From an uncultured bacterium (GTDB lineage Bacteria; Fidelibacterota; Marinisomatia; Marinisomatales; UBA1611): a stretch of DNA of 64,000 bases. Both the position numbers and the translations under genes were made by a program. How positions within the stretch are numbered: position 1 is the first letter of the stretch; each line of letters opens with the position of its first letter. The DNA lies in NCBI GenBank assembly GCA_943788175.1, contig CALSPG010000002.1:37317-101316 (forward strand), in the 5' to 3' direction. Positions 27,659 through 32,010 of the stretch are shown piece by piece. Below the pieces are notes generated by a model. That model searched no databases. It was given only the letters and a program-made list of their open reading frames with translations, and was not told the DNA's origin.

Positions 27659-29485
27659 ATGGGTTTAATGGTCACATTAAGAAAACGAATGACAGTAGTG
27701 CTGTGGGCTTTATTGCTTCTCTTTTTATTAAGTATGTCCGTTGGCGGTTTAGTTGGCGGAGCGAATATCATCGATCAAATTGCTGGAAGAGTCGATCCCT
27801 CAAGAGTAATTGCTCGGATTAATGATCAAGATATTTCTCCAGATTATTTTAATAATTTAGTAAATCAGCAGATAAATCAAGCAAAAGAAAACGGCCAAAC
27901 TGTTAATGATGCACTCTACGAGCGAGTAAGAAACTCTGCATGGACAAATCTTGTACAAGAAGTCTTAGTAAGTTCAGAAATTAAAAGATTAGGATTAAAA
28001 GCAACAGATGAAGAGATAATCTACCACTTGAGAGAAAACCCACCTGAGTTTCTGCGTTCAAACCCGACGTTTCAAACTGATGGAAAATTTGATTCAGAAA
28101 AATATCTTCTAGCTCTTTCCTCCCCTCAAGGAGATGAATGGACTCCAATCGAGAACTGGATGAGAAATAGCTACATACCCAATCTTAAACTCACTCAGTT
28201 TTTAAATGAAAATGTACTTGTCACTGCTGAGGATATAAAAAATGATTTTGTAAAGAAAAACGTAAAATATACAATCGATGCTATTCATGTTACGTACGAC
28301 AAGGCACCAAAAGATGATATTGAACCATCTGATAATGAGCTCACAGATGAGTATAATGCTTCACTATCGGATTTTGAACATGATGAACTTCGCAACCTAA
28401 GCTTTGTTTCTTGGAAAAAATCACCATCATCACAGGATAGTCTTAATAATACCTATCTAGTAGCTGACATTATGGAGAGAGCAAAAGCGGGTGAAGACTT
28501 TTCAAGTTTAGCAAATGAATATACTCAAGACCCTTCTAACCAAGAAAAAGGTGGTGACCTGGGTTGGTTTGGTAAAGGACAAATGGTTAAACCGTTTGAA
28601 GAAGCCGCATTTAAAGCAAAAAAAGGCTCTATAATTGGACCAATTGAGTCGCGCTTTGGAAGCCATATCATTAGCGTCAGAGATAAAAGAACAGAAAAAG
28701 GCAAAGATCAAATATTGGCCTCGCACATATTACTAAAAGTCGAAGCAAGTCCAACAACACTGTCTGACCTTAGAAGAGTTGCCACTCTTTTTAGTTATGA
28801 TGCTCAAGATTCCGGATTTACTGCTGTTGCAAATAGCAATAACCTAGCCATTATATCGCAAGAAAATGTCGAACAGTCCTCTTCCCGAGTTAGGGCTATC
28901 GGTTCAATGCGTAGTGGCGTGAGATATGCTTTCAATAATAAAGTTGGTTCTGTTTCAGATGTTCTTGAAAATGATCAGTTTTATGCTGTTTTTCACGTTG
29001 ACAGCTTAATTGAGGAAGGGCACAAATCGTTTACGAGTGTTAAATCTCAACTCATGAATAAGGTAAAAAGAGAAAAACAGAAATCTGCTTCAAGGGATAT
29101 TATTGATGGATTAGCCATAGAGTTAAATGCAGGCGAACAATCTCTTCGCTCTTTAATTGAAAAGCAAAAGATTTTTGATAGTGTTAAAGATGAATCAAAA
29201 ACGATAAACGAAGGCTTTACCTCTATTGGTAGAAGCAATTTTATTACAGGAGCATTATTAAATAGTGTTGAAGGGAAAATTGTTGGTCCTGTTGAGACAA
29301 ACAGAGGCTGGGCAATTATTCATATCAAAGCTATTGCTTCAATCGACTCAACAGAATTTGAGGTGCAGAGGGAGTCTTTAGCAAGTGGACTTCAGACAAA
29401 AAAGCAAAATCAATATCTGCAAAACTGGTTGGATGACTTAAAAGATAACGCTGAGATAGTTGATAATAGAAATTATTTCTATTAA
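27659..29485 (+). CDS. PpiD/SurA-type peptidyl-prolyl isomerase
   Basis: N-terminal TM, SurA-N domain, parvulin motif GGDLGWF...MVKPFEEAAF...ESRFGSHII. Confidence 0.9.
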   Translation: MGLMVTLRKRMTVVLWALLLLFLLSMSVGGLVGGANIIDQIAGRVDPSRVIARINDQDISPDYFNNLVNQQINQAKENGQTVNDALYERVRNSAWTNLVQEVLVSSEIKRLGLKATDEEIIYHLRENPPEFLRSNPTFQTDGKFDSEKYLLALSSPQGDEWTPIENWMRNSYIPNLKLTQFLNENVLVTAEDIKNDFVKKNVKYTIDAIHVTYDKAPKDDIEPSDNELTDEYNASLSDFEHDELRNLSFVSWKKSPSSQDSLNNTYLVADIMERAKAGEDFSSLANEYTQDPSNQEKGGDLGWFGKGQMVKPFEEAAFKAKKGSIIGPIESRFGSHIISVRDKRTEKGKDQILASHILLKVEASPTTLSDLRRVATLFSYDAQDSGFTAVANSNNLAIISQENVEQSSSRVRAIGSMRSGVRYAFNNKVGSVSDVLENDQFYAVFHVDSLIEEGHKSFTSVKSQLMNKVKREKQKSASRDIIDGLAIELNAGEQSLRSLIEKQKIFDSVKDESKTINEGFTSIGRSNFITGALLNSVEGKIVGPVETNRGWAIIHIKAIASIDSTEFEVQRESLASGLQTKKQNQYLQNWLDDLKDNAEIVDNRNYFY

Positions 29486-30642
29486 ATATTATTATTTTCC
29501 AAAAACTTAACTTTTTGGTCTTGATAATGTTTCTTATTCGGGTCACCCTGAATACATTTATTGATTACCTCTAGAGCGTCCTCAGTTCTTCCAAGTTTCC
29601 AGAGCACTTCTGCTTTCGTATCTAGAATTTGAATATCTTCTCCATATTCTAGTGCAATATTAACTTTCTCTAGAGCTATTGTTAGATTTCTTCCAAGCTC
29701 TGTCATCCTCCAAGCGAACCCATTTAATAAACTAGGAAGATATTTATAATTTTCATCATATAAGTTGACAGCTTTTAAATAAATAGAAGCTTCTAGATCT
29801 GGGTCTTCCCCGCCTTTCTTCACAATTCTCATTATCTGCCAGTAAGACAATTTTTTTCCATTCAATATTATCAGTGATTAATACATAACGATTGAGATCC
29901 TCAATTTTATTATTCACTTTTGCTTTGTATAGCAATCCGTAAAAAGTAGGCAGTTTCAGAAGAATCCCTATTATCTTCTACAAGGTTATCCAGGAGTTTC
30001 AATAGAAACATCAATCGAGCCTATTCGATAATAAAGCTGGCTTATGTTAAAAATACGTTGAAAGCTGAATTCACTTTCCTGCTCATAGTATTGTAAGGCA
30101 TTCCTTAAATGTTTTTCCGCAGAATCTTTTACATTAAGATCGATATATTTTTCAGCTAATGTAAGTTCTAAACTAGGGTCATCCATGTTTGTTAGATATT
30201 TGGATTGCAAAAATGACAATGTATTTGTGCCACTTTTTATCCTCACTAACTCAGACATAAACTCATCAGGTGGCCTATATCCAACGATTCGATCAATTTC
30301 ATTTCCAGATGGATCTAATAATAATATCGTAGGGTATCCTCTTACTCTATAGGTTTCCTTCTGTTCAGGACCAATGCCTTTTTCTGCATCTATCTTTATT
30401 GAGATAAGGTTTTCACTAGCATATTTTATTATTCTTTTATCTGAGTAGGTATCGTTATCCAAACGATCACACCATGTTCACCAATCTGTTTCAAAATCAA
30501 CTAAAATCATTTTTTCAAGATTTTCTGCTATAATGTTGTCTAAAGAATCTTTACTCCAAGGATAAACGTTATTTTTTTCACAACTAAACGAAAAAAGTGA
30601 AAATAATATTAACAATAAAATCTTTAAAATTGATAAGAACAT
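29482..30642 (-). CDS. Exported thioredoxin-like selenoprotein (UxxC) with a TPR-like C-terminus; three +1 frameshifts in 29851-29999
   Basis: ATG at 30642 is in frame through TGA 30480-30478 (codon 55: VDFETDW-U-TW-C-DRLD), then YRVRGYPT (cis-Pro loop). SECIS-like hairpin follows the TGA. C-terminal LNGFAW...ILDTKAEVLWKLG is TPR-like. Confidence 0.8.
30448..30473 (-). promoter_or_regulatory. Putative bacterial SECIS element
   Basis: Minus strand GGT-GTG-ATCGTT-TGGAT-AACGAT-ACC. The apical loop starts 16 nt after the UGA and has G at position 2. Confidence 0.65.
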
Positions 30643-30646
30643 TTTC

Positions 30647-31063
30647 TTATTCTAAGCCTAATCGAGCTAAGTTATCAGAAATCATTTTAGGAACTCTAAC
30701 AGGTTTATTATCTTTATTTACAAATGCGTGAGTAGTGTACCCTTTTACATGAAGTATTGAAGATTTAGCACACAAAATTGAGTAGTCTATATCAAGCTTA
30801 GCCTTTGGAAAAATAGATATACTAGACTTAATCACAAGACCTTGCTCAAAATGTGCACCTTTAAAATATTCACAATGACTACTGATTACAGGAAGCATTA
30901 TTCCAGTATTTTCAATCTTTGTTACACTTAAGCCTATAGATTTTAATAATTCAGTACGTGATTCTTCAAAGTATTCAAGATATCTTGAATGATATACAAT
31001 ACCCATTTTGTCAACATCACGATAATAAACTTTTACTTTATGATCATACGATATCATTTTCAT
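30647..31063 (-). CDS. Acyl-CoA thioesterase (YbgC/FadM family)
   Basis: VYYRDVDKMGIVYHSRYLEYFEESR. Confidence 0.9.
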   Translation of the reverse strand: MKMISYDHKVKVYYRDVDKMGIVYHSRYLEYFEESRTELLKSIGLSVTKIENTGIMLPVISSHCEYFKGAHFEQGLVIKSSISIFPKAKLDIDYSILCAKSSILHVKGYTTHAFVNKDNKPVRVPKMISDNLARLGLE

Positions 31064-32010
31064 TGCTCAAAAAACCCAAGTTTATCATATTTTTCTATCC
31101 TCATATCAAGAAATTGTTTCGGTTCAATCGATTTAAAATCATTTAAAGCATTTAATAATGCTGATTCTAAATTTTTCGCTGATGACTCAGAATCTCTATG
31201 TGCTCCACCATTTGGTTCTAGAATCACCAAATCACAAATACCCAAATCTACCATATCATCAGGCGTTACTTTTAATGCTTCAGCCGCATCCTCAGCTTTA
31301 TTTGCATCACGAAAAAGAATGGAAGCACAACCTTCTGGACTAATTACAGAGTACCAACTATTTTGCATCATTAAAAATTTATCACAAACACCAATGCCCA
31401 ATGCTCCACCACTTGCGCCTTCTCCAATTACTATGGAAATGACTGGAACTTTCAAACTTGACATTTTTATCAAATTATTTGCAATAGCCTCTCCCTGTCC
31501 TCTTTCCTCGGCACCAATACCCGGGAAAGCACCTGGCGTATCCATAAAAGTAATAATTGGTATTTTAAATTTTTCAGCAAGCTTCATTACACGCATAGCT
31601 TTTCTGTAGCCTTCAGGCTTCATCATACCAAAATTTCTATGCAGATTCTCTTTTGTATTACGACCTTTTTGCTGAGCAATAATTGCAACTTTTTTGTTAT
31701 TTATTTTTCCAAATCCTGTTACTACAGCAGGATCATCGGCGAATAACCTATCTCCATGAATCTCAAAAAAATCGGCAAATATTAATTTAATATAATCAAG
31801 AGAATAAGGTCTTTCAGGATGCCTAGCCAGTTGCACTCTTTGCCATCTGCTTAATCCTGAATGGATTTTGTTTATCAACTTGAGTCTTTTTTCATGCAAT
31901 AATGCAATTTCTTTTGCCACATCAGAATTGGGCTTAAGGATTGATTCTTTTAAATGAATTTCTTCATCTAACAATCGAATTGGTTCTTCAAATTCCAAGT
32001 AATATTTCAA
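31060..32010 (-). CDS. accA: Acetyl-CoA carboxylase carboxyltransferase alpha
   Basis: QLARHPERP, DTPGAFPGIGAEERGQ, GEGASGGA. Confidence 0.97.
   Translation of the reverse strand: MKYYLEFEEPIRLLDEEIHLKESILKPNSDVAKEIALLHEKRLKLINKIHSGLSRWQRVQLARHPERPYSLDYIKLIFADFFEIHGDRLFADDPAVVTGFGKINNKKVAIIAQQKGRNTKENLHRNFGMMKPEGYRKAMRVMKLAEKFKIPIITFMDTPGAFPGIGAEERGQGEAIANNLIKMSSLKVPVISIVIGEGASGGALGIGVCDKFLMMQNSWYSVISPEGCASILFRDANKAEDAAEALKVTPDDMVDLGICDLVILEPNGGAHRDSESSAKNLESALLNALNDFKSIEPKQFLDMRIEKYDKLGFFEQ

Follow-up and report, generated by a model that had tools for sequence, protein, structure and literature searches.

A predicted selenocysteine-containing thioredoxin-TPR lipoprotein gene of a marine Marinisomatota bacterium

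The gene, its interruptions and its neighbours

We analysed a 64,000-nt stretch of DNA (here termed the window) of a marine bacterium of the Marinisomatota (Marinimicrobia/Fidelibacterota), a placement in line with the named relatives, which belong to the Neomarinimicrobiota/Fidelibacterota. The gene described here is located on the minus strand (29482..30642) and encodes a putative thioredoxin(UxxC)-TPR lipoprotein of 385 aa, once three extra bases are left out of the sequence. Starting from an ATG at 30642, 54 codons specifying a hydrophobic N-terminus with a Cys residue at position 21 lead to an in-frame TGA (30478..30480, minus strand). This triplet stands where a thioredoxin motif has its first Cys (DFETDW-U-TWC; translated context ...DFETDW*TWCDRLD...) and is predicted to encode selenocysteine 55 of a U-T-W-C58 site. 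The coordinates and the translation agree with the initial annotation, which had placed a TGA at this motif position after 54 open codons.

Past the TGA, the frame is open for 163 further codons (to position 29986), and the remainder of the gene is distributed over three frames in the window sequence as assembled. Gene calling with translation table 11 yields three short ORFs (54, 158 and 127 aa). A database protein of 385 aa (P0020) aligns to the window piecewise in the expected frames (pieces 1-215, 216-233, 233-263 and 263-386), and the orthologues of two related genomes, G003 and G001, are uninterrupted proteins of 385 aa. It had been anticipated that standard annotation would miss such a gene, and the databases do mostly overlook the Sec forms, cutting them short or misreading them: among 150 listed representatives, 34 begin immediately past the motif, and 5 of the 120 top database matches carry W at the Sec site (Cys in the other 115). 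The W residues of these five proteins are best read as the result of the gene-caller's choice of genetic code.

The three extra bases are located in homopolymer runs at positions 29997, 29941 and 29851. All three are absent from G003 and G001. The first two are left out in the contigs of all four short-read runs inspected, and the third in three runs, the fourth being without cover at this site. The four runs come from three studies and represent populations rather than the source cell, and one of them may be the source sample. One contig of 885 nt spans all three sites, and a contig from one study differs from the window allele in nothing but the left-out bases over 29925-30016. Two alleles coexist in the runs at 29740-29985 and 30682-30800, differing at 8 and 7 positions across 114-143 nt, and all three indels of the assembly fall in the strain-variable stretch 29740-29985. 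The three extra bases add up to a net shift of +3; therefore the last part of the gene returns to the first frame. One of the runs is an RNA library, whose contigs cover 29 of 30 bins; its records reach 67 kb in length, and such contigs cannot show transcription.

Had the TGA arisen as a nonsense change and were the frameshifts real, the locus would be a pseudogene or a sequencing artefact, a reading to which the four interruptions in the window's own sequence lend some weight. We consider it very improbable. The TGA is unaltered in the short-read contigs of the four runs and is common to 23 of 30 orthologous loci across several families, while the extra bases are all +1 changes in homopolymer runs that are missing from close relatives and from independent contigs of three studies. 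On the basis of these comparisons, we attribute the three frameshifts to errors of assembly within a strain-variable stretch, and it is almost certain that the locus represents one intact selenoprotein gene, with the incorporation of selenocysteine being predicted.

The gene is preceded by a block of two genes on the same strand (30647..32010): (i) an acyl-CoA thioesterase gene (30647-31063; TIGR00051 over its cut-off) and (ii) a gene at 31060-32010, which we take to be accA-like. Of 30 loci, 25 have the thioesterase gene beside the thioredoxin-TPR gene and 24 have the accA-like gene there; both are probably co-transcribed with it. On the other side lies a convergent gene for a 608-aa peptidylprolyl isomerase-like protein (27659-29485, plus strand), whose stop codon overlaps that of the thioredoxin-TPR gene by 4 nt (29482-29485). 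This arrangement was found in only 7 of the 30 loci, all of one genus, so the isomerase was not linked to the function of the gene. The neighbourhood was dropped as a functional clue, since only the thioesterase and accA-like genes are conserved and these give no hint of a redox role.

Selenocysteine machinery and the recoding hairpin

The host genome (2.27 Mb, 92% complete) contains the complete set of genes expected of a selenocysteine-using bacterium by the initial annotation: selA and selB, which are adjacent on contig C3, selD on contig C7, which has an in-frame TGA of its own, and a tRNA-Sec gene (selC) with the anticodon TCA on contig C6. All of these score over the respective curated cut-offs. 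TGA serves as an ordinary stop in this genome, terminating 210 of the 1197 ORFs that are 250 or more codons long, and prfB is retained. A reassigned code (UGA read as Trp or Gly) was therefore ruled out, in agreement with the earlier view that the genetic code is unchanged.

Several other genes of the genome contain in-frame TGA codons. At least nine selenoprotein candidates were found, of which six have export signals by inspection, and several of their hairpin loops lie 16-19 nt past the UGA. The candidates include (i) an UshA-like lipoprotein (CGU), two Bcp-type peroxiredoxins (TPGU) and SelD (C1:245976, C5:279033, C5:139022 and C7:397476), and (ii) three exported UxxC redoxin-type proteins with T9SS-like C-terminal tails (C6:72356, C1:334413 and C8:48293), one of which passes the NF053656 cut-off (115.5 vs 100) and another of which is just under it (94.9). 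A further candidate (C3:132690, minus strand) is a 785-aa lipoprotein with a Big_7 Ig domain and no NCBIfam family, in which the TGA lies within PGY-U-VITFPQDG. Ten loci retain the TGA of this lipoprotein together with a CCCCA-GGA-TGGGG hairpin, invariant among them, that lies 17 nt downstream, and distant paralogues mostly have Val, not Cys, at this site. It is not listed in the available part of the selenoprotein table of a 2026 inventory (PMC13188914), and its motif is absent from the supplements of the 2008 GOS (ocean DNA) selenoprotein paper. The Big_7 lipoprotein is more novel than the thioredoxin-TPR gene.

A putative bacterial SECIS hairpin is located downstream of the TGA of the thioredoxin-TPR gene (30444..30473, minus strand). 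Its core stem-loop (30467-30451), ATCGTT-TGGAT-AACGAT, begins 10 nt past the TGA and consists of a 6-bp stem and a 5-nt loop, UGGAU (30461-30457), which puts the start of the loop 16 nt from the codon, exactly where the initial annotation had put it. According to the available part of PMC13188914, the published bSECIS model has a loop of 3-9 nt with G in its first two places, a spacing of 16-37 nt, an upper stem of 4-16 bp and an energy threshold of at most -7.5 kcal/mol. The hairpin conforms to this geometry, and its minimum free energy (-6.9 to -7.7 kcal/mol, depending on the window folded) sits at the threshold.

Taken as a lone sequence, the hairpin is within chance expectation (z -0.65 to +0.62 versus shuffles), and 29.6% of the 93,695 TGA triplets counted over all six frames are followed by a loosely defined hairpin; we therefore did not use it as evidence by itself. 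The SECIS-like element owes its credibility to conservation and covariation across orthologues and not to the energy of one sequence. Among 20 distinct TGA alleles, the six stem positions are paired in 91.7% of cases, and 10 changes are two-sided (GC, AU, UA and UG at one stem pair; CG and UA at the next). The covariation score of these alleles is 0.321, against 0.138 for shuffled alignments (reached in 0 of 500 shuffles), and exceeds that of every slid control. The stem pairs of the seven Cys alleles, by contrast, are only 50% paired (434 of 500 in the shuffle test). RNAalifold applied to the TGA alleles recovers the same upper stem and an additional lower stem. In a wider set of 80 loci, the best among 594 confirmed stretches, a 4-bp stem carrying a GG/GU loop occurs at 36 of 37 TGA loci and at 2 of 43 Cys loci. 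The shuffle test overstates significance, as the covarying rows are kin, and the stem overlaps the codons for D-R-L-D-x-D; the pattern nonetheless extends across several families. Recoding of the UGA to selenocysteine is a well-supported prediction: it would be directed by SelB attached to the hairpin, which lies 16 nt downstream.

Orthologues and the exchange of Sec and Cys

Of the 233 genomes of the order that were searched, 56 gave matches at E<=1e-25, and we examined the best 30 loci. In the column of the in-frame TGA, 23 loci have TGA and seven have TGT or TGC, which is the pairing of Cys with TGA expected of a selenoprotein family. In all loci but the window's own copy (29/30), the frame is unbroken to the C-terminus. 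A second scan, of species-representative genomes that partly overlap with this set, yielded 594 confirmed stretches, the best 80 of which comprise 37 TGA and 43 Cys forms, a ratio that is no census because the first pattern of the scan demands Cys. Within these 80, the TGA forms bearing a phylum name are of Marinimicrobia type, apart from one FCB group label and one Lentisphaeria label, and Cys is found in the rows of Ignavibacteria, Zixibacteria, Calditrichaceae, Armatimonadota, Planctomycetota and Acidobacteriota.

The selB gene was detected in 171 of the 233 genomes of the order, including 19 of the 23 TGA-bearing genomes; the four misses are genomes of 55-70% completeness. In one family of the order (f12), neither selB nor the thioredoxin-TPR gene (E<=1e-25) was found in any of 38 genomes. 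All seven genomes with a Cys allele also carry selB, which rules out the Cys alleles as a mark of lost Sec machinery and indicates that Sec is not essential to the function of the protein.

A tree was constructed from 29 orthologues with the Sec/Cys site masked, the window genome being excluded because of its frameshifts. The Cys forms constitute three separate, well-supported groups, so that at least three changes between Sec and Cys are needed. Two of these groups are nested in a supported clade that contains 19 Sec rows, and one Cys allele (G005) retains 5 of the 6 stem pairs of the hairpin; both observations suggest reversion of Sec to Cys on this midpoint-rooted tree, whose root is insecure, the outgroups forming long branches.

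Architecture and a possible role in the envelope

The predicted protein comprises three parts. The first is a lipoprotein-type signal peptide ending in Cys21 (30580..30642, minus strand); a signal peptide with Cys21 had been noted in the initial annotation. By inspection, the leader is charged and hydrophobic, with a small residue before the Cys. All full-length aligned rows have a hydrophobic leader, and Cys21 is found in 19 of 21 aligned orthologues. The genome contains lspA, and the product is probably exported and lipid-anchored at Cys21. The second part is a thioredoxin-like domain (residues ~25-138; 30229..30570, minus strand), which matches Pfam PF13098 with 49.5 bits (cut-off 27), carries the UxxC motif and has an invariant GxPT (Pro104); Asp49 is presumably the general-acid Asp of thioredoxins. 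The third part is a TPR-like helical solenoid (residues ~140-385; 29485..30225, minus strand), which is all-helical in the structural model and matches consensus TPR proteins in structure; Pfam TPR matches to this region stay below cut-off. An AlphaFold2 model of the G003 orthologue, built on 21 rows (mean pLDDT 91.4), contains a leader helix, the thioredoxin fold at ~25-138 and helices thereafter to the end. The invariant columns are concentrated at the active site, in the GxPT loop and in the last TPR pair (N306, W310, R311, M312, D340, T341, A343, E344 and K348 in the solenoid). No NCBIfam model covers the whole protein over its cut-off, and the same holds for intact orthologues. Longer relatives (P0122, P0130, P0133, P0141, P0143 and others) have two or three thioredoxin-like stretches or carry the module C-terminally in larger proteins.

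The matches that come closest to residues 25-138 in structure and sequence are (i) the gamma domain of DsbD (Z 16.0, rmsd 1.9, 110 aligned residues), (ii) the Bacteroides protein 2KUC (Z 15.4), which is also the closest solved sequence, and (iii) Chlamydia DsbH (Z 15.3). The protein described here differs from these in having Sec in place of the first Cys, a predicted lipid anchor and a fused TPR solenoid. The whole-protein scores are far below the cut-offs of the DsbH (NF043050; 38.8 vs 190 bits) and DsbD (NF001419; 46.7 vs 330 bits) models. The top NCBIfam row is TsoB (NF045694), a rhodanese/DsbD fusion-like selenoprotein, owing to a shared DsbD-gamma-like domain; only the last 114 of its 572 positions align (73.3 bits vs a cut-off of 805), and TsoB has a different architecture and a UxxxxU Sec motif.

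The genome encodes a full DsbD, with N-terminal, TM and thioredoxin domains, and gave no match to DsbA, DsbB or VKOR, an absence that is no proof in a genome 92% complete. It is established, according to the available part of PMC3322552, that DsbD feeds several envelope oxidoreductases. Together, these observations make an envelope reductase the most likely role. In the mechanism we favour, the selenolate of Sec55 would attack a disulfide or an oxidised cysteine of a client, Cys58 would resolve the mixed bond, and the DsbD-type membrane protein would re-reduce the DsbD-gamma/DsbH-like domain; the TPR solenoid would bind a protein client or partner, lending the reductase its specificity. We regard a DsbD-fed envelope thiol-disulfide reductase with a client-holding TPR arm as the probable function, and assign a probability of about 0.6 to the explanation as a whole (an intact Sec gene, a lipoprotein and this reductase mechanism). 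Among the points against it, a TlpA-like lipoprotein (WCGPC) is encoded directly after dsbD on the same strand (contig C10) and is a more obvious DsbD client than the thioredoxin-TPR protein.

The same TlpA-like gene argues against a reductant dedicated to cytochrome c maturation (CcmG/ResA-like) or to another single pathway. The genome does contain a cytochrome c assembly protein (PF01578) as well as DsbD; however, no ccm genes lie close to the thioredoxin-TPR gene in the loci inspected, and the domain of its product resembles DsbD-gamma/DsbH, not TlpA/CcmG. We judge such a role to be improbable. Scarcely better placed is a disulfide oxidase or isomerase that would replace the missing DsbA/DsbB system. 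It would account for the lack of DsbA, DsbB and VKOR matches in a genome that nevertheless encodes Cys-rich exported proteins, and 2KUC is annotated as a 'putative disulphide-isomerase', a label that is itself putative. No re-oxidising partner was seen in the genome, and Sec at the attacking position and the likeness to CxWC/DsbH proteins would point to reduction.

More serious, although still unlikely, is the possibility of an envelope 'chaperedoxin', in which the TPR arm would hold unfolded exported proteins in general, while their cysteines would be protected or reduced by the Sec domain, by analogy with cytoplasmic CnoX/YbbN. CnoX has the same order of domains, an N-terminal thioredoxin domain followed by a TPR domain; the top two Foldseek rows are YbbN of E. 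coli (E 7.3e-7) and Salmonella (3.4e-6), and the CnoX of C. crescentus is both a holdase and a reductase, as described in the available part of PMC6282202. The overall shapes differ, however (TM-score only 0.23-0.24, rmsd ~21 A), and the WCGPC motif is lacking. CnoX is cytoplasmic and passes its clients to GroEL/DnaK (PMC6282202, same part), whereas the lipoprotein signal of the Sec protein would place it away from both. Invariant residues are tightly grouped in the last TPR pair, a pattern that suggests a single specific partner and not a holdase of general use.

UxxC thioredoxin-fold proteins are the commonest kind of selenoprotein. The predicted protein joins a selenoprotein family already predicted from ocean DNA in 2008, the Trx-like 2 group of the GOS survey, with which it shares the Pfam domain and the UxxC motif. 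The Trx-like 2 block of Dataset S1 contains nine occurrences of WUTWC and eight of DFETDW; several WUTWC entries show a signal peptide, the Cys and part of the helical tail and, compared by eye, are visibly near-identical to the G002 and G004 orthologues. The entries of the group (22 sequences in the table of the 2008 paper) are read-length fragments without a host, and the group also includes unrelated UxxC proteins. The terms TPR, signal peptide and SAR406 do not occur in the main text of the 2008 paper. A PF13098 UxxC row, with WP_011366075.1 as its representative, is retained in the available part of the 2026 inventory (PMC13188914), in which TPR, lipoprotein, signal peptide and Marini- have no occurrences. 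Literature searches, which covered papers outside subscription, returned no description of the full thioredoxin-TPR architecture.

The biological advance is therefore modest, the UxxC thioredoxin-fold kind being common and the family having been predicted in 2008. The gene call corrects the annotation of an abundant marine phylum, for which databases split or truncate the Sec forms or insert Trp into them. A bolder and rather doubtful interpretation is that the protein is a Sec-using envelope counterpart of CnoX, i.e. a membrane-anchored chaperone-reductase for exported clients, in a host with DsbD and without DsbA, DsbB or VKOR matches, with an active site that has undergone at least three exchanges of Sec and Cys in Sec-making lineages. 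If this were true, the family would offer naturally matched pairs with which the benefit of Sec could be tested. Sec and Cys orthologues of ~60% identity occur within the same genus, in hosts that both have selB, with the hairpin gained or lost to match. Such pairs may provide a ready means to gauge how much Sec adds to the catalysis of an exported oxidoreductase.
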